DNA of 64,000 nt from Adineta vaga (Eukaryota > Animalia > Rotifera), in contig CP075497.1 of NCBI GenBank assembly GCA_021613535.1, positions 10,354,001-10,418,000 of the forward strand, read 5' to 3'. A model generated the notes under the pieces. It saw only the letters and a list, made by a program, of their open reading frames with translations, was not told the DNA's origin and searched no databases. A program made the position numbers and the translations under genes. Of this stretch, positions 3,146 through 50,258 are shown in pieces (the first letter of the stretch is position 1; every line of letters starts with the position of its first letter).

Positions 3146-6100
3146 ATGCATTTCGACATATACATGGTTTTCACTGCCATCGTTACTACCCTCTTATGTT
3201 CGTTACCGTCATCCTTGTCAACTTTTATTGCCACTCAAGCCAGTTCAGTCATAACAACAAGTGAGCTATTATTTTTCTGATTAAATTTAATTATTTAGGT
3301 TTTATGTCTTCTCATTGTCATGAACACTTTATATTGATTTGCTAGACAACTATAAGTAAATGTATATATAGACTGAAATCGATTTCACTAGTGGTATGCC
3401 ATAAGGTGATATGATGATGTAATTTGATCTCTAATCTGTATCAATTCAGTAATAATTGAGTGTTCCTTTTCTTCGTATTTCTTTTTTCTTTATGTGCCGT
3501 TATTGCCGACTCGCGATTAAATTTGATATATAGTTATAGATACGTGTATAAATGTATATATATATATATACATATAAATATAAACGTGTATATAAATATA
3601 CATGAATTAACACGGCAGGCAACCTTGGAAGAATCTAGGGAGTTAGGTAATGATACGACACAATTCTGCCGCTCGGTTGTATTTGCTTCTGTGTTTTTTT
3701 ACACTGGTGAGAGACGTTGCGTCGCCGTGATGTTGTTTTCATGTAGGAAAACAACGTCAGCTAAATGGTGGTTAATGACACTCATTCGCGCGCAACAATA
3801 CTAATAGGCGGTAGAAGAATAGAAAAAAAACACACATACAAACACACAGAATTCGCATTACAAATTCTTGTTTTTTGTTTGATGTCAGGTAGCTTTAGTA
3901 TTGATTTTTTTTGCATAAAATAGTATGCATAATAATGATATATAAAGAGAAACGGATCCTGATTTTTTTGTTTATCTTTATATTGAATGTATATTGATCA
4001 ATCGATCGATCAGCACAACTGCTATGTGCAGATGATTGACGTACAAGCCACAGTCGTCTAACGTGTCAAAAAACCGCTATCATACGGTAGAAAAGAAAAG
4101 AAAGCTAACCACATATAGGCATATAATATACACATACATATGCATCGTTCTTCTTCTATATCATTTAATCTTAATCAAGATTATGTCACCTTGATAAGAT
4201 ATATTCACATAATATTTTGGAAGAAGTTTGATTCTCAAGAGAAAAAAATGCTTTTGACTGATTTTGATTAATTTCTTCGAGGTTAATCATAATAGTAATC
4301 TATAATAGATAATGAAAACATGTTTTCAAGACAACGATTTTAGTTTTACATATATACACATACATACAGTTCGCAAGCAGTCGAATGTCTCGACATTTAG
4401 TTTACTCATCTGTTATCTTATAAGACGATGTTTTCTCGGTATGCTTGCATACATACACACACACACTTTTTCTTTTATTGACTAAATGAGACCAGTAGCA
4501 TGAAGGCTATTGCCACATAGAGATGTTAAACTCTTATTGTTGAGAGTGACAAGCAAAAGAAAACCTTGCCATCAATGTTGTTGATGATTGTGTATAGAAG
4601 ATGATTCATATAAAAAAATCTCTTTCATGGTTTCGTTTGATGAGATAAAATCAATTATAGAAATGTTATTTTACTAGTATTATGTAATAAATGCGTGCAC
4701 AATCACTTGATAAGAGACGTGGCTAGGCGCTTACAGACGTGTACATGTCTATTTATCTATGAATTTCTATTGCTTCGTATGCTTCTTCATATGAAAGCTC
4801 ATCAAATCTGATTTCATCTTTAACAAGACTAATTCAACAAATGCATCGATCTTCTTTTGCTCATTTGAAATTAACAGTTCGACTATTCATTTCTACTTAA
4901 CATCGAACAAATATCTTTTTTTTTCGTCATATGAGATGATATTATAAGCTTATGCCGTGCCTAGAAATAAATAGTTTCGTGTCACAAAATCGTATCTTTT
5001 TCTCTACTCTCTTTCTCTCTCTCTTCTCTTACTTTGTTTTTTACACAAAGGTCAAATAAATCTACGTTGCATCTGTCTGCAAAAAAAATGCACTGCACTT
5101 GACAGCAGCCTTCATTGAAAGTGTTTACTGTTACTGTAGCAGAGATAACATATATACACATTGACAAATAGATATATGATTATGTTGTATATGAGGAAAA
5201 AAATGTGGGAAAGAGTTTGTGAGATAAATCTGACTCGAGACAAAAACGACAAGTGTGCCCTTTGTATTACATGGCACAAAATATTTGATCTCTTCACCTA
5301 TATTTTGATTGGGTTTTTTTAACTTTCCTTCGTTTTTTTTTAACGAAATAGAACACTCGCTTCAAAAGATAACAAACGAGTGATCTTTACAAATAGAAGA
5401 CAGTTATAAAATCAACATGCTCTTGCAAATGTTCGCATTATACAAATAAATAATCATTAGCAATCGATATAAGATCTTTGAGCCATCGTTATCGATAATA
5501 TTACCAAGAGTACAGACAATTGCGTGAAAATCTATCGATAGAAAAGATCGTCTTTCACGTTTTCTAATCCTTCTAATCGATAAAGAAATATATATAACGC
5601 CGAAGGACGCTATGCAAGCACACCTCTCTCTCTCTCTTTGCGTGTATATAAATTTACATATTTGCTTTTAATATAATAAGAAATAGTCTTTTTTTTCATT
5701 GATATCTTTAACTGTCTGTAAATATCTATAAGCAAATACACATCTTTGTGTATCAATACAAAGTCACTCGTTTCTTTTCTCATCAGATAAATTAATGATA
5801 AAAAAAAGCGATTTAACGCATCTCACATATGCAAGCGAAGGCAATCAGGCGGAATAAAAGAAAACATCGGATATATTACTTATAACTACGACAAAAAAAA
5901 CAAGAGAATATTCGATAAGATATATATATTCATTTATAGAGAGAACTATTTGTACTGAAGGAGGAGTCGAAGAAGAACAAGGTTATATATGATTAATGAT
6001 CATTATTGAGATTGTATATGTATGTCTATTCATCTGAAATACTAATATCCAACATTTGTTAACACATTGAAATATGTATATGTATATAAACAAATTGAAT

Positions 6101-21417: not shown

Positions 21418-22420
21418 TACAATCAATGTTGTGTTTGAATGTACATATTCATAGTACAAACATATACTTATTTTTTTTTCTTGTCTCAATAAAACAAAAA
21501 ATTTATCCTATCAGAGTAATATCTATCTAAATATTATCGATTTTGAATTAATTTGGACATTCACTTCGACAATGTAATTGTCATAACCTTTTGTTATTTG
21601 TTTTCATACTATTGAATTTTCATTAGTAATCATTTGTAATTTGTGATGAATGCATGACTTTGATAGAAATTATCGAAGAATTAACGTGACAAACTCGAAC
21701 ATGAAAAAAAAGAAGAGAAATTATTTTCCCCAAATAGAACATCAAGGTTATAATTTATTCATGTAAATACTTAACATTCAAATTAACTTAGTATTCTATC
21801 TAATTAGTGATGTTTTGAAACCAAGAATATTCACCATTCAAATTTCATGAACATTTGGTTCGGTTAAAATCCGATATGATCCAGATGATCAAGCTATTTT
21901 TCGTCATACAGAGGAAAAGGTCTGTGTATTGATTCATATCGAACAAAACCGATGTTTTTATAAATTAGTTTCTAATCTAACCAATCTTCGAGGAAATTAC
22001 TTTTCCAGATTAACTTAATAACAATCCCAAATATATCTACATTGTTAACCTACATTTTTTAATTGTTGCAAATAGACACCGAGATAGTATGTGTGTAAAA
22101 TATAATTAGTTTCTTGTTCCTCTCTCAATGAGATATAAATATACCTGAAGATTAGTATCGTGACTTAACTTAGTTCATTCCAAAGACCTCTTTCTCTTTT
22201 CGTGATCTAGAATAACGTGAAAGAAAGCATGTAAGATGTTTTTTGCATTAACTTCTCTTTCAATTATTCATTAATCTTTCCAACAGATAGAACAAATATC
22301 GATAGATGTAGAACAATGAATTGTTAATATCTCCATTTCTATTTATTTTTAGATTATATATATATAGACAGAGAGGAAGAGGGACTTCTTTCCACATTTA
22401 TTTAGCTGAAATTCTAAACA

Positions 22421-23137
22421 ATGGTAAGAAAGGAGAACAATTCATGTTATTATTAAATTTTTATTACTCTTTAGGCTGATCATTTGAATGAATTTTGGAG
22501 TGAGAAAATGAAACGTCTTTTCTATCTTTATGGTAAAATTCGAAATAAACTTTAAAATTTACGTCGATTTATCTTGTATATTGAAGATATTGATCGAGAT
22601 GGTTCGATAACTCCAGCTGATTTTGAAATTCTTGCCGATAAACTTTCAACACTTGTTGGTCAAGGTGATGAAAAACGTCGAGAAGAATATGCTACAGCTC
22701 GAAAAGCTCTTTGTCAAGAAATCATGCGTGCTGATGCAAATCAAGATGGAAAAGTTACATTAGGTAAATCATTTTGTTATACAAAAGACACATTTGTTGT
22801 CTTATGTTCTATAGAAGAATGGTTGGATTTTCATCGACGTCTTGCCATTGAATTACGTAAACCAGGTGCGAATCCTGAGTTATTACCACAATTAACCCAA
22901 CGAATCAATACAACATTTAATATGCTTGATCTCAATCATGATGGTCATATTGCACGTGATGAATGGGTTAAAACTTGTGAATTTTTTGGTGTTGAAAAAG
23001 ACGCAGCTAATAAATCTTTTACACAAATAGCACAAGGTGATAATCTTGAAGAGAATGTCGCGAAGAAAATGTTTTTCGATTATATTAAAACTGATGATCC
23101 TAATCATATATCCAATTGTTGTTTATGTTTTCTTTGA
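22421..23137 (+). CDS. Sarcoplasmic calcium-binding protein (SCP/calexcitin/aequorin-superfamily) EF-hand protein
   Basis: ATG-only first coding exon (22421-22423), then ADHLNEFWSEKMKRLFYLYDIDRDGSITPADF (SCP-type N-terminus), DANQDGKVTLEEW and DLNHDGHIARDEW; the fourth EF hand is degenerate. Confidence 0.85.
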
Positions 23138-23459
23138 ATATATATATATATAGAATTTCGAAAATGAATGTTGTGCGTGTTTATTTATTTATTTAATCAG
23201 AAAATATAATAAATCTAGTTTTAATCGAATATATTCTAATGGAGGTAGCAGATGTGCTAAAGCGATCTTTTTCTCATGACCTATCAATGTTCCTGAGTAT
23301 TTGTTATTGAAAAATAATAAGTATTTATATGAATAATAATATCATCATCCAAGAAAACATTTTGCTCTATTCATAGACGACCTTTATTCTTAATGAAATA
23401 ATTATTTATTCAATCATTATTCCAAATGTACAAGAAGAAAAACTTTTCTTTTGTTTACA

Positions 23460-24754
23460 TTAAAACCAATTCTTTCGTTTGAAAAATAATAACATTGTAA
23501 GTGCTAATGCCACCATACCTGAAAGCACTACATAGTATCCATATTCCCAATGAATTTCTGGCATATTATCAAAATTCATTCCATAAACTCCAGCTATAAA
23601 TGTCAATGGAATAAATATTGTTGATATGATTGTCAACGTTTTAACAACTTCATTCATTGCATTGGAATTAATCATCATATAGAAATCAATAAATGATGAA
23701 AGCGTTTCACGATATGTATCAATTGTATCATTCACTTGAACAACGTGATCAGAAAGATCTTTCAAATAGATAATAGTACTTTCTTGAATAATTTGTGTTT
23801 CCTCTTCTTTTTGCAATCGATTTATAATCTCCTTTAATGGAGATATTAAACGACGATAATCCAACATATGACGTTTAAGATCATAGATTGTTTCTAAAGT
23901 ATCACGTGATAATTTATTCATTAACTGGTGATCAATTTCTTCAATTTTAATATTGACAATATCGAGTACATCCATATATTGATCAACGATTTTATCGATT
24001 AATGAATAAAAAAGGTAATCAATTTTCGATTTTCGAATTCGACCAAGATTTTTACGAATTTTATCTATGAAAATGCAAAATAAATCGTTCGAAGAAAAGA
24101 AACGATTCGATCTAATTTACTTTTGATTTGATCAAATGTATCTTTAGGTTTTTCTTGAAATGTAATCAAAACATTTTCTTTTAGATAAAAACTGATTTGT
24201 TCAATACATGTTTGTTGAGTAATACGATCTGGATAGATTAATTTCAAAACTAAAAATAATGCATCGTCAAATATATCTAACTTTGTTCGTTGCTCATGAG
24301 TTTCAATATCTAATATCACCAATGGATGAATCTTAAACCGTCGACTAATACTTGTTAGTAATGTTGTATCATGAACCTGTAAGTTTCATTGAAATATTTC
24401 GATTGCAGAAGAAAACTTTTCACTTACACCAATCGCATCAATCCATAAACATTCATTTGATTTTATTGCTGGCATATCTTCAATAGATGGATATTGTCTT
24501 TCTTCAAATGTATCTTTATTATAGATAAATACAGTTGGCGTAATATGTGTAATAGTTTGCATTTCTTGTGCTGATTGATGAGATATCGATCCACGGGAAA
24601 CGGAGAGTGAACGATGAGCAATGGAACAAGTTCGATCTCGTATTTTATCTTCATTGACTAGGAAATCTTCGGAATAAACTTCGAAATCTGTTGGAGATAA
24701 AGAGCGAATTCCTTTCAACACAACAGCTTTCGTTTTCGATAAAGTGGATGACAT
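23460..24754 (-). CDS. corA: Bacterial-type CorA Mg2+/Co2+ channel, copy 1 (3 exons)
   Basis: WIDAIGVHD, FKIHPLVILDI..QRTKLD, DYLFYSLIDKIVDQY and MNEVVKTLTIISTIFIPLTFIAGVYGMNFDNMPE (GMN signature). Introns at 24377-24427 and 24065-24120. Confidence 0.95.
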
Positions 24755-25085
24755 GATACACGTTGTTTGTCCTTCTTTTTTAAATAACAGAATATTTCAA
24801 CAACATTGTTAAATAATAGGTTACAGAATAGAAACAAAGAAAAACAAAAGGCAGAAGAAAATATTAGCTATTATTTGTATTCATACAGGTATGAAGATAG
24901 TTGATAAGATATTAACTCATATCCTTTAAGTTTATGAAATACTATTCTGTCATGCACATTGTGTAAGTTAATCGTCACTTACAGTCATATATTACATTCA
25001 TGCCAAATTAGATATCAAAAATAAAATCTCTTTATTCATGCATCGTTTTTTTTTTTGTATACAATGAAGAAAAAAAGAATTTCAT

Positions 25086-26373
25086 TCAAAACCATTTCTT
25101 TCGTTTAAAACAGCATAACATAATAAATGTTAAAGAAACCATACATATAAGTACGACATAATATCCATATTTCCAATGAATTTCTGGCATATTATCAAAA
25201 TTCATTCCATAAACTCCTCCAATGAATGTTAATGGAATAAATATTGTTGATATAATTGTCAACGTTTTCATAACTTCATTCATTGCATTGGAATTAATCA
25301 TCATATAGAAATCAATAAATGATGAAAGCATTTCACGATATGCATCGATTGTATCGTTCACTTGAACGACATGATCATAAAGATCTTTCAAATAGATAAT
25401 AGTACTTTCTTGAATAATTTGTGTTTCTTCTTCTTTTTGCAATCGATTTATGATCTCTTTTAATGGGGAAATTGATCCACGAAAATAAAGCATTTCACGT
25501 TTAAGATCATAGATTGTTTCTAAAGTATCACGGGAAGGTTTTTGCATTAGATGATCTTCTATAGCTTCAATCTGTGTACCAACTTTATCAAAAACATCCA
25601 TATATCGTTCAACAATTGTATCACATAACAAATAGAATAAATAATCGATTCTTGATCGACGTATACGACCACGATTTTCAGAAATTTTCTCTAAACAAAA
25701 AAACCTTTTCGCTTAAGAAAGAAATGAAAAATGTTGATTTTACTTTTGATTTGATCGAATATATCTTTTGGTTGTTGTTGAAATGTAATTAAAATATTTT
25801 CTTGTAAATAAAAACATATTTGATCAATACATGTTTTGCTGGAAGATCGATCGATATAAATAACTTTAGCGACAAGAAATAACGCATCATCTAGTATATC
25901 TAATTTTGTACGTTGTGCTATTGTTTCAATATCAGCAAGAACTAATGGATGAATTTTAAATCGTTGACCAATTTTTGTTAATAAACTAAAATCTTGTGCC
26001 TATGAAGATCAAATTGTATATTTATTATTAAAATAATTAAAACGAAATTCATTACAGCAGGTATATCAATCCATAAACACTCATTATTATGAATTGTTCG
26101 AATGTCTTCCATTGATGTAGATGATAATATTTCTAAAATATCATTATTATAAATTAAAATCGTTGGATCAGCACGAATATCGGATGGTCGTTCGGAAATT
26201 TGACTATGTATAAGTGTTGGTGGAACATAAATAGTCGCCGCACGATTTTTAACTGTTTGTGTTCTTGGTCTTAATTGATCTTCATCTTTGGAATACTCAT
26301 ATAGAATGTCCTCTGATTTCCGATGTTTTCGTCGACGATGTACAATTAAATTAATAGTTGTCGGTGATGACAT
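25086..26373 (-). CDS. corA: Bacterial-type CorA Mg2+/Co2+ channel, copy 2 (3 exons)
   Basis: Same motifs (FKIHPLV, MNEVMKTLTIISTIFIPLTFIGGVYGMNFDNMPE). Introns at 26000-26055 and 25691-25743, in the same positions as copy 1. Confidence 0.95.
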
Positions 26374-26619
26374 GAGAATAGATATATAGTTTTTGTGAGT
26401 TTTTCTTTCAAAAATGAAATGATATCTTACCTTTTATGTCACAGAAAGAAAGCAAAACAAATCTACAGCTGACATTGTTGATTTAGAAGATCTGATAACT
26501 GATATCATAAAACTTGTTAGAAGTTTTTTTAACAATGACTTTTGAAAAAAGACAAAAACGTTTTATTCTCTGAACAAAATCCGTTATTTTACTAAAGAAA
26601 AAGAAAAAAAGACGAAAGA

Positions 26620-27484
26620 TTATGTCTTTGGTCGTCGTTTTGATAATTGATATTCATCCCATATTTTTGCTTTATCAACAGGTGCAATAACACATCGAAT
26701 TGAAACATCAACAAGTGGATTGATTTTCAATGTGACATGAAATTCTTCTCCTAATTTATATGTATCTTTATTAATCGCATTATCTTCTAATAAAATTGCA
26801 TCTTCATCACACATAACATTCTAAAGAAATGAATTAGAATTTTTAAAACAAAAGAAATGTGTTTAACATACAACACGTCGAAGTGCAATACGAATATTAT
26901 CTCTTGTTAATGACCAATCTTTACTTTTCATATTAATTGGTATTTGTAAAAGAATTGTTTTCAAATAATCTCGACATTTCATAACAAATGGAGAGATTTG
27001 TGGTCGATCTACAAGTAATTTCCTTTCTTCTTCAAATAATGCAACATTTTCTGATGTTGGATAAAGTGCTAATTGTGTTGGTAATAATTCCGTATAAGCC
27101 ATTTCACGTGGTACATTAACAATTTCACCTTTATATCCAACACCTACTCATCATACAAAAATCAAACAATTTCAATAATATCTGGAGTTTCTTTTTCATT
27201 CATTACCTTCAACATATTCAGTGAGAATAACATCAATATTTCCCCATTTTTCTGTATCCGTATCACGAACTACACGATACTGAAAATCTGCATATTTATA
27301 TTTATTATAATCATAAATATTTTCCCATGGACGTAATTTTGTCAATGGATTTACACGTTCAACAATGACCGTTGTCTGAAAAAGTCGATAAAAAGATTTA
27401 TATTTCAATTTCATTTCATTTTACTCGAATAGGTATTTGAACAATTCGAACAGCTTGTAATGGTCGAAGAAATGTTCGAATCAT
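26620..27484 (-). CDS. MRPL9: Mitochondrial ribosomal protein L9 (bL9m)
   Basis: Basic presequence MIRTFLRPLQAVRIVQIPIR, then TTVIVERV and IDVILTEYVEGVGYKGEIVNVPREMAYTELLPTQLALYPTSEN (L9 N-terminal domain); 4 exons. Confidence 0.88.
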
Positions 27485-27635
27485 CTGGAGAAAAAAAGAC
27501 AAACTACAGTAGAAAGACAAAATTTGGTTTTTAAAAAGAACAAAATCAAGTGTACATGAAACCATGAATTACTTGAAAAGACATGAGGAACAAAAGAAGA
27601 AAAAAAAACAAGAAAAACTTTCATGTTTAGTGAAA

Positions 27636-30600
27636 TTATTCAATTGAAAATTGTTCTAGTTGATCACTTTTACTTAACCATGAAACATTCGCATCGGTTG
27701 ATTCCGTTTGAAATGCAGTAGATAGTAAATCTTTCACTCGAAGATACGTTTTATTTAGTTGTTTAGCTTGTTGATATGTTTTATAAGATAGACCAGCATC
27801 TTGTGATAATGTTGTTTGAAAATAATTTGTGAAATCAACAAAGAAATTATATTTACTTAATGATGATATCGATCGATCAATTCTAGAAAAGAAAAGAAGG
27901 CGAATTGTAGAATGAATGTTTGTAAAGAACTGAATGATGAAAACTTACTTTAATTTTCCTGTCATTGGTTCTAATAATTCTGTTCTATCTGGTTGAGTAA
28001 TATTCCATGCAAATGCATTGGTTTGCAGTTTTGCAACTCGTCGTTCATATTGAAATGATTTCGTTTTCGGACAATCAATATCCGGTATATGAAATAGAAA
28101 TGGAGATGGTAATGAAGAAAAATGTTCATTTAAATGTTCAGATAAAGAATATTTCACATGATTACGATCAAATGTTGTGTCACAGGCTATTGTTATCGTT
28201 TCAAGATATATTGGTTTAGTGAGGAAATAAATTAAAAGACCACCTTGAATACCTAAGATACTCCATCGAGAAATTTTATCACTACAAGATTTGATTGGAT
28301 ATTTTATTGGACTTGTTGATGCAAGTATAGTACCTTCAATTTGACCTTGTTTATAACGTATAGAATTTGAAAAACTAGTTAAGGCAGCATTGCCACATGG
28401 TAATGATGATATATACATATGAAATGTTATATTTTCTTGAAGTTGATATTTATCAATGGTTGAATCATATTGAAAAATTGATGATTGATTATCTTTACAT
28501 TGTTTGATTTGTTCAAATAAAAATCGAATTAAACCACGACGTGCAAGTATTTCTGCATGACAATCATGTAAAACTTTACCATCATCCGCATAACTAAGAT
28601 TTGTTTCATCGAGACAACTATTTCCAGTTCCAATACTAATCACAGATGCTTGTTCAAATTGTCCATCGATAACCATTAACATACATGCTAACGTTTTTCG
28701 ACCGAGTAATAATTCATTAACATTTAAATCTTGAAATTTTGTTAATGATCGATGTGCAATATAATCATGTTTATTGGAAAATTCCGGTTGTGTTTGTTCT
28801 TGAGTACGCGATTCTCGGTATAGAATACGTAAAGCTTGATCACATGCAAGTTTTTGTGCTTCATTTTTTGTTGAACATGGTGATGACGATGGGAATTGCC
28901 GACTATTAATTGTAACTGTACATGTAAAGATTGATGGAGATACAGAAGAATGTTCATAATTTAATGTCAAATTATTCTGTTGAGCAAATTCATTTAATGT
29001 AGATATACAATTTGGACTTTGTAGAATGGATAAAAGTATATGACTTGCTATTGATGGAATTGCATTGGTTTGTGACGATGATGAAATGATTTGTTCTTTT
29101 TCAGATGATGTATTTGAAGGATCTTCAATAGATAAGGAGGTAGGTGGTTCTTCGGTAAGTGATATCGGAGGAAGTTCAGTGTCTGCACTTGGTTTACGAA
29201 GAATCGTGAATGGATGCGAAGGAATAGATTCAGGTGTTGATACAGTAGAAGTCTCATTGCTATCTGTTTGTTTAGGTTTTTTCCTATGTTTTGGTGTGAT
29301 ATTTCGAATAACTTTCGATGAATGTTGAGATTCACATGTCGAGCTTGATTTCGGTTTATTGGGATCATAGAGTTGTTTCTGTTGTTGGTGTTGTTGATAT
29401 GACGGTTGAACATATGATGCTTGTTGATGAGGATTATATAATCGTGGTCTAAATTCAATAGGAAATCGTTTTTTTAAAGCGCTTAAGTTATTTTATTTAT
29501 CCTATAAATCATGTATTCATTTTCTAATGATTATTATCCGTTCGATGATATTAGATTTCAAAATTCAGCGGATGAATCTACTGATCATTTCAAATATAAA
29601 ATTTATGAAGAACTGATATGTATTATTATCTTTCTACTTTTACTTGGTATTGAAATTTTTATTTCGATAATACAACTATTGAGAGATTGTTTGAGAGAAC
29701 GAAGACATCGAATGAATGATTGCTATCAACAAGATTTGGAAACGTCTTCAATTAGTACAAAAACTTCGTCTTCTATCGATCGAATAACTGGTTAAAGAAC
29801 ATCATTGCATTTACATATCTCAAGCAATATGTTCAATGAAGAAAGATCGAATCTATAAGGGGAAAACTTACGGCCATCCGTACGTTGCTGACATCATATT
29901 CATTCGACGTGAACCAGTTGCATAACGTGAATTTGTCATCATACCCGAATGGTATGGATAAAAATTATTGTAAGAATATTGTTGATTTGGATAATGATGT
30001 TGATAAAAATGATGTGTAGGCTGATATATAGGAGTTGATGGTGAGAATGGAATACTGTCTGAAGAGAGTCTTGATGATCCACTAAATAAAATGGTATGAA
30101 AATTTTAGAATTATTAATAAAAGAACAAGAAAAAAAAACTGACGTGATCGTTTCTGATTCTTGGAAAGTGACATGTTTAGCTTTTGGTTTATTACTATTG
30201 TTACTAGTGGAAGATGGTTTATCAGAAAAATTCGATGCAAAACTATCCACATAGTATTGTGGTTGAGGCACTTTTGTTTCTGATTTCTTTTTAGCAGATG
30301 AATAATATGTTTGTTCATTTGAACGATTCGACATGTGTGATCTTTGCGGATAATTATTTCGTGGATAGATCTGTGATTCTTGATTTGAAAATTGAATTGA
30401 CATTAATGGTGGAGTAAAAGCTACTAATTGTGCTTGACTATCAGGTGAAGTCATATTTGAAGGATAGTATTGTTGAAAATATTGTGATGGATGCGTTGAA
30501 TGTGGACGATATCGCATAGAATTTGGACGATTTGGTTGTGTTGTATTATTCATTGATAAATCTGACATACCATTCGTCATATCATGAAACTATACGAAAA

Positions 30601-31046: not shown

Positions 31047-31490
31047 CTCTAACGTATTCTTCATCAAAGTATACATATACATAGTATAATATGTATGTTA
31101 GCTGGATTCGAGATATATGACTTAACGGCAGTTCTCTATTGTGTATATTTATTTGAGAAAAAAGAGCGCATGATGGAGAAGTTGTCGTAACAACTTCTAC
31201 TGAAATTGTGTCATAAAGATGGTTTTGCTTAAGATATGCGTAACATCAATGTCATGAATTCAATGGTCTTGGATATTGTTAAGCTGTATAACTTTGGATT
31301 ATCAATCATTAGATTTCTTTTTCAAATTTTATAACCATTTCTTCTCGTATAATAATGATTGGAGAACTTTCTTTTTATCAAATGTTTTCAAGTTTTATGA
31401 CATTACTAGTTTTATTAAATATCTACAGATAAAACAGCTTTTTTTCTTCAAATTTTTCATCTATTCGTATTCATCGATTTCGTTACAAGG

Positions 31491-34400
31491 ATGAAGATAA
31501 TAGGAAAACGTTCGACAAACGAAATCGAATTTACAGCCTGGCAATTTCTTGCATTAATTATTGCTGCTAGTGCTTGCGTCTTCGCTATTGCACCATTAGT
31601 TCTTCAATATCGATCAACGAAATGTGATGTGATATATATAGATAAAATTGTTAAGCCTGAAAAATCGAATATTACTGAGAAAACATCAGATTTTCATGGT
31701 AGATATGTACGTGATATTGGTCGTCAAAGTCAATGTGCAGCCATTCCACCCATGTGTAGTGCGACCACAACTGTACCAACAATACCAACAGCATCAACAG
31801 TCACGACAACACGAACTACAAGCAGTACACCAAAAGTTACTCGCCCAGTCATTACTACCTATCCAACAGTACCACCAACAACAACACCAGATCCATGGGC
31901 TAATATCTCTCGACCATATTCATCTTGGCGTTTACCTTCTTTTGCATTACCAACTGAATATAAATTGAATATCGCTTGTCCTGATTGTTTTGTACTCATT
32001 TCGAATTCATCATCAATTAAATTTAATGGAAAAGTAGAAATTTATATAAATATTGACACTTCAACAAACTTTCTCGTACTTCATTCGAAAAATTTAAATA
32101 TTACTCATGCACAAATAATTTCTGGTGGTGCTGGTAATGCGACAATTACATACTTACCAGATACTGAAATGGTCCACTTATTATTTACTTCGACAATTGC
32201 TAGGTTCAATTACTTTAGAAATTGATTATACTGGAACAGTCAATCAACGAGATCAAACAGGATTCTATCGTGAAGTATTTTGGAAATCAATTGGTGAAAT
32301 CAGCTAGTAAGAATACTTTTCTATAATACAAATGAAATCTATGTTTATATCATTCCTAGTTTATTAGCTACTAATTTCCATCCAATTCACGCTCGACAAG
32401 GTAAGAAAAGAAAAATAAACTGAAATTCTTTGGAAATGTTTTCTTTTTTTGAAAAGTTTTTCCATGTTTCGATGAACCAAGTATGCGAGCAAAATTTACA
32501 TTAACACTTGAACATCCACATAATTCATCAGTTGCATTATCGAATCTTCCTGAAGCAGTATGATTTCAATAAATAATTCAACAAATTACACATGCAGTTC
32601 TTCATCGTCTTATTTTTAGACTTCAAGTGCTTCATCAACAACATTTTCAATAACACCAACAATTAGTGTATCTTCTTTGAGTTGGGCTATTCTACCTACA
32701 GATGAATTTCCTGCTGTTTCGAAAACTTTCGGTACTACAACGGTAATTTTCTCATATCAGTAATTTTCTCAACATAAAAAAATGATTCGTTTCAGGTTAA
32801 TATCTACGTTCGACCAGAATTAACTGGTTCACTCAATGCCAATCTCGATTATACATTCGATGTCATCGATAAAACACTTCAGTTCATTCAAGATTATATG
32901 AATGTATCATCTACTAATCTACCTACTAAACTTGGTAAGTTCTATATTGGAAACCGAAAACAAAGCTTGTTCGAATCTTTCTCTTTTAGATTTAATTGGT
33001 ATACCTGATTTAGTTGTTGATGAAAAAGCATCGGCATCTTGGGGTCTATACATATTTCGTGAAGAGTTTCTTATTACTGATACAAGTTTAAATTCAGCTG
33101 AACGGAAACAAACAACAACAAAGATTCTTGTTGAACATATTTTACAACCTGTAGATTGAATAAATCATCTTCTTTCTTCGAAAAATGTTCTTTCTTTTTT
33201 TTAGTGGTTTTCAACAGTTGATTGGTGGGATAATATTTGGCTTGGTAAATCTATATCCTCATTTCTTGCTTATAAAATGATTGATCAAAACTATCCAGAA
33301 TTGAGATTAGTAAATATAAATCCTTCTAATAAAAACTGACTTCATTTTTAAATAATAAATTCTCAATTAGATGGAACAATTTCCTATTCGTGAAATGATG
33401 CCATTAATGATGGATGATTTCAAACCAAGTATATGGGCTGTATCCGAGCAAAATTTAACAAATAATGCACAAATTCTTGATTATCTATCGACACATATTT
33501 ACAGTAAAGGTGCATCACTTCTTCGTTTACTTGAATATATATGTGGCATAGAAGCATTTCAAAATGGTGTTATAAGTATTATCTCAACATCAAATGCATT
33601 GGATGTTGTACCAAGATTCTATTCGAATTTTAATCTAAGTGCATCGATAAATACTACACTTACAGCTGAAGAATTTCTTCGCTCATGGTTAGAAGAACGA
33701 AATTATCCGATATTAACAATTGATGTAGTTCCCAATAATGAAACACAAAAGAATACGACATTAGTTTTTCGTCAAGCACGTTATTTTGGTTCATCAGTTT
33801 TAGATGATAATTCATTGAATATGAATTATACATGGAAAATGTTTGTTGAATGTGATCTTGGTGGTTCCAATGAAGCAGATGTCTTTAATTTAACAGCTAA
33901 TCATGCAAAATCAAAAATACGATTTATTTTAGAATCATCAAAAGAAGTTATTCAAATATTAGATGAAGAATATCTATGGATTAAATGTAATAAAGATTTT
34001 TATTCATTTCAAGTGACAGAATATGTATTAGAAGATGATGATCCACATGGTATTTGGCAACGTTTGGAATTATTATTCAGAGATGTATGTTTACATTAAT
34101 ATTTAATTGAAAAAGAAAAATTCATTTCATTTTATTCAATAGGATACAATATTTTCTGGTAATGATCGAGCTAATTTAATTAATGATGCTTTTATTCTTC
34201 CACATGGTGGTGAAATTGTCAGTTATGATCAAACAATTAATCTAGTACGTGAACTATTTGATATTTCAGCAGAAAATTATTTACCTTGGTCAGCCTTTGT
34301 TTGGCATTGGAATTATATGATGGGTGTTGAGGAACATTCGAAATATTTTTATAATTTCAAAGTAAAGAAAAAAAACAGATCTATTTTATATCAATCAATC

Positions 34401-35461
34401 TATTTTCAATATTTTTCATTCTAGCAATTTGCAACACGACTTACTTTAGCTCCATTTGATCGTAATATAGATAATATTGTCACTGTTGGAACAACTCATG
34501 AAGAAAGGTACTCATTTCATTTCCTTTAACTTCATAATCTTTTCTGAAATCATCTTATTTAGATTAATTAAATCAATGTTCTTTGATTTACTCTGTCGTG
34601 TTCAAAATCCAGATGCATTAAATAAAGCAACTGAACTTTTCCGACGTATTCCTGAAAGTTATTTCTTGAATTCAACTGGTCCTACAAAGTTTGTTTCTTG
34701 ACAATTTTTAATGTGTTTTTTTCTTTTATCAATACTTATGGGAAATTTTCTAGTGTCGATGCGGATTATTTGTCAACAGTAATCTATTATCACATACAGA
34801 ATGCAAATGATATGGATGAATGGGATTATTTATGGCTTAACTTTACAGAGAATGAATCTATGACAGGACAACAACGAACTACTCTTCTTCGAGCTCTTGG
34901 TGCATCGAAAGAAACATGGCGTTTGAAATCGTAAGTTGTCTTTTATCAACGAAGATTTCTATTTTGATTTCGTATAGAATATTGGAACAAGCTTTCGATC
35001 TGGATGCTAATCTGATTGAAACACAAGAATTTTTTGATTTAATTATTACTATCAGTCAAAATCCAAATGGACGTGATATTATTTGGAATTTCTATCGTCA
35101 TAATTATCGAGATTTACTTGCTACGTAATTGAATATTTCTTACAAAGAGTCAAACATTTGTTTTTTATTTTAGATATGGTGAATCAAATCGTTTATTCAA
35201 TCAATTAATAACTAATATTGTTCAATCATTTGAAAATGAATATTATTACATGGAGGTAATTGATTTTCTATATGAAATTATCGTATAAATCTTCTTTTCT
35301 TGTAGATGATGAATTTCATCAATGAATTTCCAAGTTTATCAAAAAGTCAACAATTAGCTAAAGATCAAATTTTAATTAATTTCATATGGTTACTCGATGG
35401 TATGGCTGAAGGTCTTGATGCTGCCATTTCAGCTGGTGAAAGAATTGATCTACAGAAATAA
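31491..35461 (+). CDS. M1 aminopeptidase N-like type II membrane protein lacking catalytic motifs; apparent frameshift near 32197
   Basis: N-terminal TM ([20 protein letters not shown]), Thr-rich stalk, [29 protein letters not shown] and [17 protein letters not shown] is replaced by KASASWG and HExxH...NEG by EHILQP...WLGKS. The reading frame changes between TSTI and [10 protein letters not shown] with no room for an intron. Confidence 0.8.
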
Positions 35462-35896
35462 TTCAATTTCTTCATAAACATTAAATCATTTTATTGACTT
35501 TCATTTTATTACATTTTTATAGAAAGAAATAAAAGTTTTAAAAAAATCAAATCCGTTAGTTAACCGCATAGCTAGGTGCTCGTATTTGTTTTTATTCTAT
35601 ATCGAGGGTAACTCTTTTTCTTAATTGGTAAACACAGTGGTCAATCAAAGCGATGCACAACCTAGCATGAAGACCTTTTTTTTTCGATATTCTCTATTTC
35701 TCTTGCCTATGAATATATGTGTTAAAAGAATTGTTATTTCCTAAAAGGTTTTAACGATATAATAGTAATTATAAGAGCAGCTGCAAAGAATCATTATCTA
35801 TCATTTAAGTATCAATAGAACTCGTTCTTTTTTCTGTGTTATATCAATTAGGCTAAAGACAAATCTTACGAAACACATTACGATTGTAGATTATCA

Positions 35897-38800
35897 ATGA
35901 CATATATTAATCTTATTGTGATATTTTATTGTACATTGTTCATCAATGCCAATGTTGTGCTTGAACAAACACAAGAAACAGAAAGTCTTACTACATTCTC
36001 ACAAATTTCAACAGCAACAACAATAATCCCATCCAAAAAGATCAATTCATCGAAATGTATCGAAGATGAATGTAATACACGTTTATCTGCCAATATCGAA
36101 GTTCATAGTTATGAATTAGAATACATTTATAAGAATTCTACTCAAACAATCGTTCAAGGACATGTAACGATTAATTTTACATTAAAAGAACCTATTAAAC
36201 AACTTATTTATCATGCGAAAAGATTTATTGAACTCGAAGAACCTTTACTTTATGAAGATGGTATTCATCGTTTAGTTTCAATGCGAACATATCCATCCAA
36301 TGATTTCATAAGTTTACGTTTAGCAACAAGAAATTCATCATTTGCTTCGAATCATTATGTTTTAAAACAAGGATTTTTGGTTAGTTTAGTTGATGGTAAT
36401 ATTGGGTTCTATCAAAGTTTATATAAAAATATCAATGGAACGACAGGGTAAAGAAATATCTTATAAAAAACAGATGAAAATTGAGAGATGATTTATTTAG
36501 AAAGTTATTAGCTTCGAAATTTCAACCAACTGATGCTCGAAAAGCTTTTCCATGTTTCGATGAACCACAATTAAAAGCAATTTTTAGAATTACAATTATT
36601 CATCCAATTGATACAATTGCTATTGCAAATTTTCCTAGTGTATGTTGATATAGAAATGAAATTCACGAATAAATTCTTGATTGATTTCAATAGATTGAAG
36701 AAACAATTGAAAATGATCTACGTCGAACAAAATTTGCTGATACATTTCCTATGAGTACTTATCTAGCCGCTTGGGCTATTCTTCCGAATACGTATGGAAA
36801 ATTAGCTAGTACCAATAATGAACCAGAAGTATATTTGAATAGGATCTGAGAAATATTGTGATATATAAATATGTTTGTTCTAGATTATTGTATGGGCTCG
36901 TCCGGAACCGACAGAAAAAGGTCATACAGATTTAGCACTGGAAATAGCACTTAATTGTGTTTCATATTTTACGGATTATTTTAATACATCAGAACCTGTT
37001 ACTCCTAAAATAGGTAAGTAGATTCTATTTAGAATTTTATATTATGTTAGAATTACCTTTCTCATAGATCTTTTGGCTGTTCCTGATTTTGCATCAGGTG
37101 CGATGGAAAATTGGGGTTTAGTCTCATTTCGTGAAGATCGTATTATGTTCGATGAAAAAACTACATCTATCCTTCAAAAACAACAATTAGGTGAAACAAT
37201 GGCACATGAAATTGCTCATTTTTGTAAGTTTATTTTCGATATATAAACAATGAATTCAGCAAAATCTATATAGGGTTTGGTAATTATGTAACTTGTAAAT
37301 GGTGGGATGATTTATGGTTAAATGAAGCAATGGCTACATGGCTTTCTTACAAACCATTCACTGCTAAATATCCAGATTGGGATATGGTAACGTCATTCGA
37401 GAGAACTCCTGATTGATAAAATATCTCTTTTCTTCGTCAAGGAATTACAAGTATTAACTGAAGAAATCATACCTGTTATGTGGGATGATGCTAAACCATC
37501 ATCACATGCAATCGTTGTTCGAAATGTTACGAGTTCTTCTGAAATAACAAGTTTATTCGATTCGATAACTTATTCGAAAGGTGCAAGTGTTCTACGTATG
37601 TTAGAGAAAATCGTTGGTTCAGATACATTTCGTGATGGTTTACGTGATTATTTGAATTCAAATGCATTTAATGTTGGTGATCCAACAATATTTTATAATA
37701 AATTATTTAAGAATATCAGTGGAGAAGAATTTATGAAGAATTGGCTTGAAGAATCGAATTTTCCAATTTTAAATGTACATTTACATGTTAATGATAGTGG
37801 AACATATGTTACATTTAATCAATCACGATTTATTATTTCGAATGCATTAGATTCATCGAATTTAACAAGTGATTATCGATGGAAAATTAATATTCAATGT
37901 ATTTTAGATGATAATAATACGATTGAATTTATTCTTGAAACAGAAGAACAAATTCAATATTTACCTGGAAGATATCATACTTGGATTAAATGTAATCGTG
38001 ATTTTCAAGGTTTTTATGTCACAAATTATTTATCCGATAATGTAACATCATCGATTTGGCAGCGTTTGTCTCAGGTCATCATATCTGAACCAACTGTAAA
38101 TAATCCTATAAGAAAATTCTCTTGAATTGTTGTTCATTTTGATTTGCTTTATTTTTAGTTCTTTTCTGATGAAGATAAAGTGAATCTAATTCAAGATACA
38201 TTTCTACTTGCTTATAAAGGTGTAATTGATTATATCGAACCATTACGTATTATTCAATCATTAGTTAAAATCAATAGTAAACAATTTGTTATTTGGCGTA
38301 CATTACAATGGCATTGGGAAGTTTTGACTGATTTAATTGAACATCTACCAAATCTTTGGTCAAAATTTAAAGTTCGATTTAAAAAATAGAACTGGTTTTT
38401 TTCTCCTAATCTCAATCTTTTCTTTTTCTCTTTGTTCAAATAGAATTTTGCAATTCAACAAATTCTATCAACTGAATCAACAATTGATGATATGTTCGAA
38501 ACAAATTCAACTGATGATCACAATCTAAGGTATTTCGAAGAAGTCGAAATTCATTTTGAATGAAAAAATATGAATTCTTTGAATAGATTACTGCGAGGTG
38601 TAAGATTTTCATTTCTCTGTCGAATGGATTATAAAAATGCGATTAAACGTTCAAATGAATTATTTAAATCTATTCCAATCGAATATTTTAATGGTAGTCA
38701 AATTGAAACTAAGTAAAATCGATTATCTCATTCGATTTTTTTTCATAAACTTTTCTTTTATTTCAGTATTAGTGCAGATTTCTTATCAACAGTTTATATT

Positions 38801-39419
38801 TGTCATTTGAGTAATGATGAAAATGAAAGTGATTGGGAAATGATGTATAATTATTATAAAATTGCAATATCACCACAAGAACAAACACGTGCTTTAGTAG
38901 CAATTAGTTCAACAGAAAATCGAGATCGATTGAATCGTTTATTGGAAGATGGAATGAAAACTGGTCCGAATGCAATTAAACGACAAGATTTCTTTTCTAT
39001 GATTGCATACATGAGTCGTAATCCAACGGGAAGAGATGTCGCATGGACATTTTATAAGAAAAATTATCAAAAACTTGTTAATATGTAGGTTATATTAAAC
39101 TGAATGAAATTTCTATCTACCTTGTTTTATTTAGTTTCACACTTGAAAGTCGTCGATTAGGTACAGTCATTGGTTCGATTGCACGTTCATTCGAAAAAGA
39201 ATCATATCTGAATGAAGTGAGATTTTTTAGTTGAATAAATATTTAGTTTTCGAAGATTTGTTTTTCTAGATGAATGAACTATTTGCTTTGTATCCAAATG
39301 CTGGTGCGGGTACAACATCACGTAAACAAGCAGTTGATCAAGTAAATATGAATATTGAATGGATAAAATCACGAGAAGAAAATCTAATTCATGCATTTGA
39401 AACCATTTTACAAGAATAA
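35897..39419 (+). CDS. M1 family aminopeptidase N-like, catalytic motifs intact, signal peptide or anchor
   Basis: [60 protein letters not shown] and [16 protein letters not shown]; ERAP1-like C-terminal domain ends at 39419. Confidence 0.93.
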
Positions 39420-41096: not shown

Positions 41097-41280
41097 GTTT
41101 TGCTATTGAGTGTAGCGCTGAATTCTGATTCGGACAATTTCGATAAAACGGTCATTTACAGTAAAGATTGTTCATTGGATATTGATATTTTTTTTTGTTG
41201 TTGTCACTTATTCATTTTCTTTTTCTACATCTTTCCCGCCGACATAAGTTGTCTATTCATTTGAAAGTATTTCTTTTATC

Positions 41281-44200
41281 ATGGCTATCGAATCTGAAAA
41301 ACAAGTTTCACCATCAGACTCCATAATTGTTCGTACTGTTGATAATATTAAAAAAAGTGATAGTGACTCATGGAATTACCGTGGGCTGGAACTTTCAAAT
41401 GAGATGCTTGTTGTACTAATAAGTCATCCAAAGATTGATAAAGCTGCTGCTGCACTTGATGTTTCAATTGGTAGTTTAGCAGATCCAAGAGATGTTCCTG
41501 GCATTGCTCATTTCCTTGAACATATGTTATTCATGGGTAGTTCAAAAGTAAATCGAGTTTTACTTGTATTTGTTCGTATATAAAACTTTATACGCTTTTA
41601 GTATCCAGGTGAAAATGAATATTCTAAATTAGTCGAAGGTAATGGTGGTTATTCTAATGCTTTCACAAGTGGTGATCATACAAATTATTATTTTGATATT
41701 AATCCAAGTTTATTACCCGATGCCCTTGATGTGTATGTTGAATTAGGATTTTTTTTGTTGTGCCTTTGTAAATTTATTGATTGATTTTAGTTTTGCTCAA
41801 TTTTTCATTTCACCATTATTTGCTGCATCATCAACAGATCGCGAATTAGAAGCAGTTAATTCTGAATATGAAGGAAATCTATCTAAAGATGTCTGGCGTA
41901 TATCTCAATTAGAAAAATCGACATCAGATCCTGCCCATCCTTATTCAGGTTTTGCGATTGGTAATACTGAATCATTAAGAACTACGCCTAAACAACGTGG
42001 TATTGATATTCGACAAGTTCTTTTGGATTTTCATAACGCTCAATATTCTTCCAATCGAATGAGTTTAGCTGTAGTTAGCAATCGTATGAACTTCATTTTT
42101 GTCTTTTATGAAAATTGAAAATTATTTTATAATTTAGAATCCTTGGATGAACTTCAATCACTTGTGATTAAAAGTTTTAAAGATGTACCAAATAAGAAAT
42201 TAGAAAAACCCAAATATGCGGCTGATCCATACGGAGAAACGAAACGAAAAGTTTGTCAAAGAAGTTTTTCTTTATAAATCATTTTCTGTCTTTCCTTTCG
42301 CAGACAATTCTCTATGTTGTTCCGGTCAAAGAACATCGTCATTTAACAATCAATTGGGTTATACCAGATCATAAAGATTTATATTATTGTAATGTAAGTA
42401 TCGAACAGTTCATCAATCTTCTTTTTAGTTTCATCTCTTGAAGTATATTTTGATTTTTTTCAGCCTGAATCATATCTATCGCATTTAATTGGACATGAAG
42501 GTGATGGATCATTATTATCCTATTTAAAAAAATTGGGTTTGGCTATTGAATTAGTTTCTGGCGAAAAAAATTCAGCGCCAGGATTTAATTTCTTTACTGT
42601 TGATATAGAATTAACCATTGAAGGATTAAGTAAATCATATTTGATGATTGTGAAATGAGAAAATCTGTTCTATTTTTCTAAAACAAAAATAGATCACTGG
42701 GAAAAAGTCATTTATATTGTTTATCAATATATAGCTATGTTACGAAAAGAAAGTCCAAAAGAATGGATTTTTGAGGAATGCAAAGTAAGATAATGATGAT
42801 GAATTGAATTGATCGAATTCATAGAACATTTTTGTTGATATTTAGAATTTAAATGCCATGCATTTTCAATTTCGTGAAAAGGAACGACCGGATGATTTTG
42901 TTTCAAACTTAGCTGGTCGCATGCGGGTAATCTTATATGATAATATCCTTTCGGTTTATCATATGATCAAAGATACTTTATTGTTCTTTTAGGATTATCC
43001 ATTAACTGAATGTCTTTCTGGAGATTATGAAATGCGTGAATTTCGTCCGGATTTGATCATTGAAGCTTTAAATGAATATTTAATTCCAAGTAAAATGAGG
43101 TAATATTGATTTTACATCTTTTTTTTCTATTCTTCATTCAAATTCAAAAAAATACTTTTTTCGGTAGAGTTTTTCTTGCAAGTAAAGAATTTGTATCCAT
43201 TGCTACGGAAAAAGAAAAATGGTTTGGTACACAATATAAACAAGAATATCTACCTGAAGAATTGATCAAAGCTTGTGAAACATGTGAACTTCTTCCTGAA
43301 CTTCATTTACCAACACCAAACGAATTCATTCCAACAGATTTTCATATATTTTCCAAAGAAGCTCATACAACACGACCGCAACTACCAACGAAAATTAAAG
43401 TAGAAAAACAAGAATATTTACTTGATAACATCAAACATTGCTTTCATTGTTCAAGGAAAATGAATTCTATCGACTTTACTATGCAGCAGATACATTTTAT
43501 AAACTACCAAAAGCTTACGTTTATTTCGAATTTCGAAAGTAATTATTTATTTATTTCTGATCTATACAAAAAAATCTTTTTTCTTTTGAAATTTAGTCCA
43601 TTGGGAAGTGTTGATCCATTACATTCCAATATGAATGCACTTTATGTCGAATTAGTTGAAGATTCTTTAACAGAATTTGTTTATCCAGCTCAACTTGGTG
43701 GATTACAATATGAATTATCTGCTTTAAACTATGGAATTCAAGTAAATCAACTTTTTCTTTTCTTGTTAATTGAGATAGATTTAATTAATTCTTTGTTTTA
43801 GTTAACTCTTCATGGATTTAATCATAAAATTAAACAATTATTAGAAACAATTATCGATCGAATGGTCAATCTTGTAGTTAAACCTCAACGATTTGAAATA
43901 ATGAAAGAAAAAGTAAATTAAATGATTTCGTCTATTGAATATAAACGAATGTTCTACTCGATAGATTAAACGATCTTTACAAAACTTTCGTCGTGATGTT
44001 CCATATCAAATGGCACATTATGGTGTAACTTATTTAACAGCTGAACATCAATGGAATAAAGATGAATTACTTAGTTGTATCGATGGTAAATCTTTAAATA
44101 CATTCTATTCATCGTAAAATATTCATTCGTTCATTCTTTTACAGGTATTACAGTACAAGATATAGAAGCGTTTATACCACGAGTATTAACAAGATTTTTC

Positions 44201-45530
44201 ATCGATTCATTAATGTATGGAAATCTAACTAAAGAGGTAAGAAGCATATTGTAAAGAATACGAATGTCGAAGACAATTTTGTAATTTTTAGCATGCATTC
44301 GAATATATAACAATAATTGAAGATAAGTTTCATGCAAAACATTTCTATCAACCTTTATTTCCAAGCATGTGGTTTAATCAACGTGAATTAACATTACCGG
44401 ACGGTTTGTTTTCTATTTACTTCTCGTTTTTCTAACAACTTGTTTTCGTCATTAGGTTGCAATTATGCATATACAATGTTAAATGATGCTCATAAGTTAC
44501 ATGCAATTGAAATCTATCTTCAATGTTTCCAACAAACATTGGAAAATAATGCTTTATTAGAATTATTTTGTCATTTAGTTGATGAACGTTGTTTTGATCA
44601 ATTACGAACAAAAGAGCAATTAGGTTATATAGTTAGTTCAGGTGCACGTCGCTCACGTGGTGTACAAGGTTTTCGAGTTATTGTACAATCAGCAAGGAAA
44701 TTGGATCATGTTAATCAACGTATTGAATTATTTATTGATTCATTAAGAGTATGTGAATAATTTCATAAGATATTTCATTATATATATATAAACTTATTTG
44801 AAATAGGATTATATTGCACAAATACCAGATGAACTGTTTATAAAACAACGAGAAGGTTATATGGTTAAAAAAGTTGAAATTCCAAAAAAAATGCATAGTC
44901 AAGCAAATAAATTCTGGAGTGAAATAACTAATCATCAATTTTGTTTCGATCGACGTAATTTCAATTATTATAAATCTCTTATGATTTTCAATATTTTCTT
45001 CTCTTTTCTAGCTCAACTTGAAGTTGGAATAATTAAATCTATCGAACAGAATGATTTACTTCGTTTCTATGATCATTATATTTCAGCATGTTCTACTCAT
45101 CGTCGAAAATTATCTGTTCATGTTAATCCATCGCCACTAGCACTTCATGTTCCCAATGATCAAACAGCTAAAGAAAAACATCAAGATGAATTAACTGCGG
45201 CTACCGATGAAGATTTACCTTCAACAACTGAACAAGAAAATACGGAAAAAGTGACGACAGAAATCGTTAATGAATCAGTTAAATTAACAGAACAACCATC
45301 GATTGTTGATACAGTAACTCATACAGATTCAAAGGAACAAGTTATACCGGAAAAAGAACTCAAATTAACACCAGTAAATTTCGTTTTCTTCTTTGTTTCT
45401 AACTTTGTTTTTCGAATTTTTCTAGACGGATTGGATTGATAATGTTCATATATGGAAAAGTAAACTGCCATGTTATCCGCTTGCCCAATTCTACGAAAAA
45501 ATTGATGTACCTGTTCTGTGTAAATTATAA
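41281..45530 (+). CDS. IDE: Insulin-degrading enzyme (insulysin, M16A)
   Basis: GIAHFLEHMLFMGS (HxxEH), DRELEAVNSE, SHLIGHEGDGSLLS and FDQLRTKEQLGYIV; ends VLCKL* (PTS1-like). Confidence 0.95.

Positions 45531-49181: not shown

Positions 49182-50258
<1,077 letters not shown>

Follow-up and report, generated by a model that had tools for sequence, protein, structure and literature searches.

In the CorA channel of Thermotoga maritima (TmCorA), Mg2+ binds at the GMN motif, M291 forms the narrowest gate, and the change D253K disrupts closure by internal Mg2+; the protein conducts in Xenopus oocytes (PMC12933068). Mutants of its M1 sensor site can still close in crystals (PMC8865849), and residues T295, T299 and H257 have been tied to a Co2+-selective subgroup A of the family (PMC3629940). 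For Metazoa, only Mrs2 is given as a member of the CorA family (PMC9276622), and MRS2 itself is described as missing from most invertebrate lineages, in an account whose relevant sections do not mention rotifers (PMC13022745). We describe two tandem genes, gene A and gene B, that encode bacterial-type CorA proteins in the bdelloid rotifer Adineta vaga. They lie in a window of 64,000 nucleotides (nt), the whole stretch of DNA analysed (assembly GCA_021613535.1, contig CP075497.1, positions 10,354,001 to 10,418,000 of the forward strand), and coordinates below are those of the window.

We propose that A and B are spliced bdelloid CorA genes descended from one ancient bacterial transfer, probably from Bacteroidota, and that their products are predicted Mg2+/Co2+ channels whose location is likely non-mitochondrial. 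We give this reading a probability of roughly 0.72. A preliminary description, made from the letters of the window, had claimed two tandem corA genes, each with two GT-AG introns of 51–56 nt at identical positions, and both the frame-opening intron models and the alignment confirm this. Both genes are intact. Enumeration of frame-opening GT..AG intron pairs gave three models per gene. GTAA donors are found at both introns in one of the three, which is the model kept; the other intron 1 choices, with GTTT donors (two of the three), are ruled out by the observed splice joints. The features are as follows, with lengths in amino acids (aa) where proteins are meant.

23460..24754, minus strand: corA gene A, 395 aa; exons 24428-24754, 24121-24376 and 23460-24064; corresponds to A. 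vaga I4U23_030507 (P0018).
24377..24427, minus strand: gene A intron 1, 51 nt, GT-AG, phase 0; skipped in runs X11, X15 and X16 (two studies).
24065..24120, minus strand: gene A intron 2, 56 nt, GT-AG, phase 1; skipped in X11, X15 and X17 (three studies).
23574..23582, minus strand: gene A GMN selectivity motif, aa 356-358.
23613..23927, minus strand: gene A tract coding for the stalk and first transmembrane helix (TM1), aa 241-345, where A and B differ little at synonymous sites, likely through gene conversion; partner in gene B at about 25239-25553.
25086..26373, minus strand: corA gene B, 392 aa; exons 26056-26373, 25744-25999 and 25086-25690.
26000..26055, minus strand: gene B intron 1, 56 nt, GT-AG, phase 0; skipped in X11, X15, X16 and X20 (three studies).
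25691..25743, minus strand: gene B intron 2, 53 nt, GT-AG, phase 1; skipped in X11, X15, X16 and X17 (three studies).
25200..25208, minus strand: gene B GMN selectivity motif, aa 353-355.

The introns of A and B fall at the same alignment columns and in identical codons, exon 2 (256 nt) and exon 3 (605 nt) have the same length in both genes, and the two proteins are identical at 252 of 396 columns. The TM1 motif quoted in the preliminary description does not hold as a single motif: it blends the two genes, A reading VVK...IAG and B reading VMK...IGG. The protein of gene A is 100% identical to I4U23_030507. The closest relatives of gene B, A. ricciae P0001 and A. steineri P0002, are about 71–72% identical, and no record of its own was found among the best 120 matches when exon 3 was compared with proteins of 348–2000 aa. 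Gene B may be unannotated or shortened in the public annotation, though it is spliced and intact.

A and B are CorA proteins of the Thermotoga type (TIGR00383, subgroup A). Against the TIGR00383 corA profile (cut-off 200.75), full-length A scores 295.2 bits, and exon 3 alone clears the cut-off in both A (220.5 bits) and B (230.3 bits); against the ZntB profile, A reaches 75.7 bits, under the cut-off of 292. When A is compared by sequence with the PDB, T. maritima CorA is matched at E 2e-78, Methanocaldococcus jannaschii CorA at 4e-24 and Mrs2 at 7e-4. The AlphaFold model of A (mean predicted local distance difference test score, pLDDT, of 83, with residues 1–65 under 50 and unstructured) superposes on TmCorA with Z 30.4 over 323 residues (root-mean-square deviation 5.7, 37% identity) and on Mrs2 with Z 14–15 at about 10% identity. 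That model has the CorA architecture: a large alpha/beta N-domain, a stalk helix, and two C-terminal transmembrane helices with GMN after the first. A search of the ESM Atlas returned generic CorA clusters only. An identity as Mrs2, which the preliminary description had named as an outcome that would overturn it, is rejected by both the PDB search and the model comparison (Z 15 vs 30). Its proposal of a non-Mrs2 route for Mg2+ holds in part. By sequence and fold the proteins belong to CorA and not to Mrs2; the route would not be the first of its kind in animals, which also have TRPM6/7, SLC41 and CNNM (PMC9276622), so it would be an additional one, transport itself being predicted.

Splicing was examined in eight public runs, compared as contigs, five of them transcript-like and three DNA. 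Each of the four introns is skipped exactly in contigs of three or four of the five transcript-like runs (from two or three studies) and in none of the three DNA runs. A single X16 contig spans the whole spliced gene B (25047-26405), and the same runs also skip introns of both adjoining genes. A further joint in X1, 23951-24830, has AT..AT ends, comes from a single contig and is anchored by 20 letters on its shorter side; it was taken as noise. To the right, DNA contigs continue from gene B into the spliced L9 gene (X1, 25503-27600; X3, 26063-27221), and others cross the gap between A and B (X1 and X2, 24435-25202); the left flank at 23327-23389 has no bridging contig among the matches listed. 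The GC content at third codon positions (GC3) is 0.19 in A and 0.16 in B, close to the 0.13–0.16 of three open reading frames (ORFs) of the window, vs 0.53 in the one sister bacterial gene read. Over aa 71–395, A and B differ by a nonsynonymous divergence (dN) of 0.18 and a synonymous divergence (dS) of 0.65; both are under purifying selection. Physical linkage to host genes, splicing and host-like composition, as expected of a domesticated transfer, are thus all found.

Homologues are named in three Adineta taxa, five Rotaria taxa and Didymodactylos carnosus among the matches listed, and no other named eukaryote occurs among the best 120 matches in each of three protein searches. Outside bdelloids, the nearest proteins share 50–57% identity with A and B and make up a small clade of seven clusters:

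Bacterial sister clade: P0038-41, P0044, P0093 and P0147; one named Bacteroidia bacterium (MBX7182742.1).

One member of this clade lies on a 4.43 Mb contig. Another locus, the sole sister member among 80 metagenome loci, covers 1477 bases and has an intronless ORF of 43% GC with two flanking partial ORFs lacking Pfam matches. Relatives were sought in viral contigs, where none of 29 candidates qualified.

The trees cover bacterial-type CorA. Rows shorter than 300 aa (240 aa in the 396-row tree) were dropped, as were non-bdelloid rows more than 70% identical to a kept row (232 reduced to 123). In a 34-row tree (LG+C20+F+G4), whose rows were hand-picked from the clades of the 396-row tree, all 19 rows from bdelloids group as a single clade with support of 100/100, which joins the five sister rows, again at 100/100. 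A quick 57-row tree agrees, with 99 for each grouping in the Shimodaira–Hasegawa-like approximate likelihood ratio test (SH-aLRT), and FastTree with 396 rows joins bdelloids and sister clade at 0.997. These trees place the bdelloid proteins beside a bacterial clade, and by them bdelloid CorA appears nested among prokaryotic CorA. Two rare residue states back the link (residues here are numbered as in TmCorA, counted from alignments, with P0457 outside the residue groups). E88 is retained by 293 of the 297 other rows, by none of the 7 sister rows and by 2 of the 43 rows of bdelloid clades A–D. M291 is present in 272 of the 297 other rows, where V occurs in only 5; V291 is carried by six of the seven sister rows and by 38 of the 43 A–D rows, including all 24 of C and D and 14 of the 19 of A/B. 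Since the lost E88 and V291 are common to the bacterial sister clade, they were likely inherited by A and B. The methionine at position 291 of gene B is then likely a reversion, which would alter gating.

Several points weigh against the proposed reading. FastTree with 396 rows supports bdelloid monophyly at only 0.53, and a tree with two transfers, in which more divergent bdelloid clades split from A–D plus the sister clade, is not rejected by the approximately unbiased (AU) test (p 0.112). No Mrs2, Alr1/Mnr2, protist or monogonont sequences are included in the trees. The donor assignment depends on one named metagenome-assembled genome, and the sister-clade gene was not found in 401 sampled Bacteroidota genomes (best match 47%) or among 80 GTDB loci kept from 14 of 64 parts scanned (best match 50%). 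None of the runs containing the locus is on record as RNA, and the spliced ones carry that label by a tool's guess. Finally, the threonines and H257 mark the Co2+-selective subgroup A (PMC3629940), and Mg2+ may not be the main cargo.

The gene could have passed through a eukaryotic intermediate, could be older than bdelloids, or could have arrived twice, once for GMN-bearing and once for SMN-bearing clades (see below). The searches show the best 120–150 matches and the trees lack a eukaryote outgroup, which leaves room for such histories, and the SMN clades keep E or D at position 88 and M or I at 291, unlike the GMN clades and the sister clade, as a split tree would have it. Against this, no named non-bdelloid eukaryote occurs among the matches listed, the best tree has a single, fully supported bdelloid clade, and a full-length Rotaria transcript scores 300 bits with bacteria, 140 with protists, 102 with fungi and 1 with metazoa in a published table (PMC4632278). 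We regard these histories as unlikely.

Returning to a single bacterial transfer, the residues allow a mechanism to be proposed. Kept in both A and B are D89, D253, H257, N288, L294, T295, T299, T305, the GMN and MPE motifs and a basic C-terminus, so that the M1 sensor pair (D89/D253) is complete. The M2 site E88/D175/D179, a feature of TmCorA rather than a family cut-off, is not intact: at position 88 gene A has leucine and gene B alanine, D175 is kept, and position 179 is D in A and E in B. Since the GMN and M1 residues are kept, and given the behaviour of TmCorA (PMC12933068), the products of A and B would be pentameric, magnesium-gated uptake channels for Mg2+ and Co2+. By analogy with Thermotoga CorA, hydrated Mg2+ would be caught at the GMN ring and would then pass the TM1 pore, and high cytosolic Mg2+ at the M1 site (the equivalents of D89/D253) would close the channel. 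Because M1 mutants of CorA can still close in crystals, this expectation about gating is not absolute.

The channels might instead serve mainly for uptake of trace metals, such as Co2+ or Ni2+, and not of bulk Mg2+. The retention of T295, T299, T305, H257 and D89, tied to the Co2+-selective subgroup (PMC3629940), fits such a role, as does the presence of other Mg2+ routes in animals (PMC9276622). These residues are, however, the majority state among the 297 other rows, GMN is intact in A and B, and the same TmCorA is treated elsewhere as a channel for Mg2+ influx that is both blocked and gated by Mg2+ (PMC12933068). We consider a mainly trace-metal function improbable as well.

A predicted magnesium channel of A or B would likely reside in the plasma membrane or an endomembrane rather than in mitochondria, because the N-termini lack a conserved presequence pattern and Rotaria has separate Mrs2-annotated transcripts. 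By residue count, each of 12 copies has 2–5 acidic and 0–9 basic residues among its first 30, with no conserved presequence-like pattern; the Mrs2-annotated transcripts make up 5 of the 33 'magnesium' rows in Tab 9 of Eyres et al. 2015 (PMC4632278). Both observations speak against mitochondrial proteins standing in for Mrs2. That idea draws on the reported absence of MRS2 from most non-vertebrate animal lineages (PMC13022745), on the partial rescue of yeast mrs2 by CorA (PMC9276622) and on N-tails that are new and Ser/Thr-rich; we hold it to be very unlikely. Contamination or a chimeric assembly, which the likeness to bacteria (57% to the nearest non-bdelloid protein) and the unbridged left flank might suggest, and which the preliminary description listed as a possible undoing, is refuted for practical purposes because the GC3 of A and B is host-like, orthologues occur in three genera, the spliceosomal introns are removed in transcripts, and DNA contigs run from B into the spliced L9 gene and across the A–B gap.

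The order of events given in the preliminary description, an old transfer followed by intron gain and then tandem duplication, agrees with the bacterial sister clade, the occurrence in three bdelloid genera, an intron 2 shared with earlier-split paralogues, and the rejection of a recent pair. The transfer would have preceded the split of Didymodactylos, Adineta and Rotaria. The gain of introns and of an N-terminal tail, some 65 residues that evolve fast and have little structure, would have come next, followed by repeated duplication, with the tandem A/B event before the A. vaga/A. ricciae split and partial gene conversion later. Exactly at the site of intron 2, an insertion or read-through is seen in unspliced metagenome gene calls: P0441 of clade C, P0448 beside clade B, and P0259 of clade D. 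A partial R. magnacalcarata protein from clade C begins at the first residue of exon 2. Two R. magnacalcarata transcripts map with a 256-nt middle exon in the 2015 table (PMC4632278). Because paralogue clades that diverged earlier than A and B bear marks of intron 2, the gain of the introns likely came before the A/B duplication. A clade C protein, P0014/P0132-P0134, is full length (387 aa) on metagenome contigs as long as 53 kb, pointing to a copy without introns in some bdelloid; many rows of clades E and F are also full length on metagenome contigs.

Gene A falls beside copies from A. ricciae and Rotaria, and gene B beside copies from A. ricciae and A. steineri. A and B as one recent A. vaga clade is rejected (AU p 5e-7), and an all-Adineta A+B clade is not (p 0.228). 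On these trees the tandem pair appears older than the A. vaga/A. ricciae split, and a still earlier date for the tandem event, ahead of the split between Adineta and Rotaria, is favoured (support 97/95 in the 34-row tree and 84/84 in the AU-test tree). The proportion of synonymous differences (pS) between A and B drops from 0.56 (aa 71–240) to 0.25 (aa 241–345), with an identical run of 58 nt. Fisher's p for the drop is 1e-4, a post hoc value for a region chosen after seeing the data. The pattern suggests partial gene conversion over aa 241–345. In A. steineri, P0019-P0022, P0002 and P0013 include pairs on contigs of equal size (332023; 1942416), suggesting that the tandem pair was kept, and P0019 has a stalk segment in common with P0002, a hint of conversion there too.

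The tandem pair is part of a larger family, with at least six CorA paralogues in A. vaga. Three more bdelloid clades, E, F and G, were reached via a long-branch match; most rows of these divergent clades are counted as bdelloid by tree position. The following lie outside the window:

Divergent CorA: P0391 (A. vaga I4U23_026977), P0425 (I4U23_007745), P0417, P0433 and P0457; three or four clades with SMN for GMN.

A serine replaces the GMN glycine in 29 of 30 rows of clade E, 10 of 13 of F and 4 of 5 of G, vs glycine in all 297 other rows; P0391 and P0457 read STN. Clade E proteins carry a long, basic insertion within the stalk region. In clade F, all 13 rows have arginine at D253, and N stands at D175; lysine at D253 stops TmCorA from closing (PMC12933068). 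No paper on a CorA with an SMN motif was found among titles and abstract openings. It is tempting to propose that one bacterial channel became an animal-style family of several subunits, in which GMN subunits (A, B and clades C and D) and SMN clades would form mixed pentamers, or SMN proteins would form homopentamers with new selectivity or without Mg2+ feedback, setting ion balance in dilute water or during drying and rehydration. We consider this doubtful and offer it tentatively.

The preliminary description placed the pair between clearly metazoan genes. This is too strong for the left neighbour, a spliced EF-hand gene at about 22400-23137 (plus strand) with weak matches to sarcoplasmic Ca-binding proteins and juvenile hormone diol kinase (E 6e-7); on the right lie ribosomal L9 and then a gene with dsrm and A_deamin domains, and both adjoining genes are spliced. 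The latter gene (27945-29492, minus strand) is a dsrm plus adenosine deaminase gene of the ADAR/ADAD kind with a long low-complexity N-part, and ADAMTS domains lie farther left. An EF-hand gene as a Ca/Mg buffer beside the channels may be a matter of chance. By eye, we take 31419-39088 (plus strand) to be two tandem M1-aminopeptidase-like genes, 41248-45439 an insulin-degrading enzyme-like gene, 49182-50258 a WDR5-like gene, 55346-57805 an arginyl-tRNA ligase gene and 60335-61755 a Kv channel gene.

In Tab 9 of Eyres et al. 2015, 26 of the 33 'magnesium' rows are foreign 'magnesium_and_cobalt_transport_protein' transcripts of Rotaria, 21 of which fall in one cluster classed Rotaria + Adineta (PMC4632278). 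The main text of that paper never uses the word 'magnesium', and the entries are undiscussed. Titles and abstract openings yielded no dedicated paper on a bdelloid or animal bacterial-type CorA, and no matching entry was found in the supplements of PMC11258130 (13 of 16 files, some in part), PMC3499245 (8 of 9) and PMC8494291 (2). The domesticated bacterial CorA pair is real and old, flagged in a bulk list and otherwise undescribed in the literature searched. Rows 5407-5412 of Tab 9 are Rotaria Mrs2-annotated transcripts flagged foreign, of class Rotaria + Adineta, with fungi at 125–142 bits vs metazoa at 43–53, and MgtE-family transcripts with protist best matches are also listed (PMC4632278); bdelloids may own several borrowed magnesium transporters.

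If our reading is correct, A and B likely give bdelloids magnesium (and cobalt) channels of a kind that animals were thought to lack. A class of animals that keeps six or more bacterial-type CorA genes departs clearly from the Mrs2-only view (PMC9276622, PMC13022745). Domestication here went beyond enzymes to a membrane channel built of several subunits, and both the donor clade and the order of the steps can be traced. Variants that occur naturally (V or M at 291 between the twins, the lost E88, the SMN filter, R253) are ready tests of CorA gating and of GMN invariance. This is tempered by the fact that intron-bearing foreign genes are common in bdelloids and that these transcripts already stand in the bulk list (PMC4632278).

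Among the systems with which the pair can be compared, the bacterial sister clade is like it in the non-acidic residue 88, in V291 and S298, and in its position as sister to all bdelloid copies; it differs in its 353 aa without a tail, its lack of introns and its GC3. The intron-bearing foreign genes of Eyres et al. 2015 include the CorA transcripts as foreign, as a bare list entry without tree, donor, residues or paralogue classes (PMC4632278). Mrs2 of human, yeast and Chaetomium belongs to the same superfamily and has two TM helices and GMN; in contrast to A and B it is mitochondrial, and the distance is large in identity, Z and E value as given above. Fungal Alr1/Alr2/Mnr2, compared here by description, are eukaryotic non-mitochondrial CorA-family channels with GMN and the nearest functional analogy (PMC13022745), with the 2015 table giving about 100 bits for fungi vs about 300 for bacteria (PMC4632278). 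The closest match is TmCorA (PDB 2iub, 4i0u, 8tmb), which shares the whole fold, GMN, the MPE loop, D89/D253, H257, T295/T299/T305 and the basic C-terminus. Unlike TmCorA, A and B are without E88 of the M2 site, gene A has V for M291, M302 is replaced by I, and the PPGTL motif at the start is missing from A and reduced in length in B; to this bacterial channel the bdelloid pair adds an unstructured N-tail, introns and an animal host.
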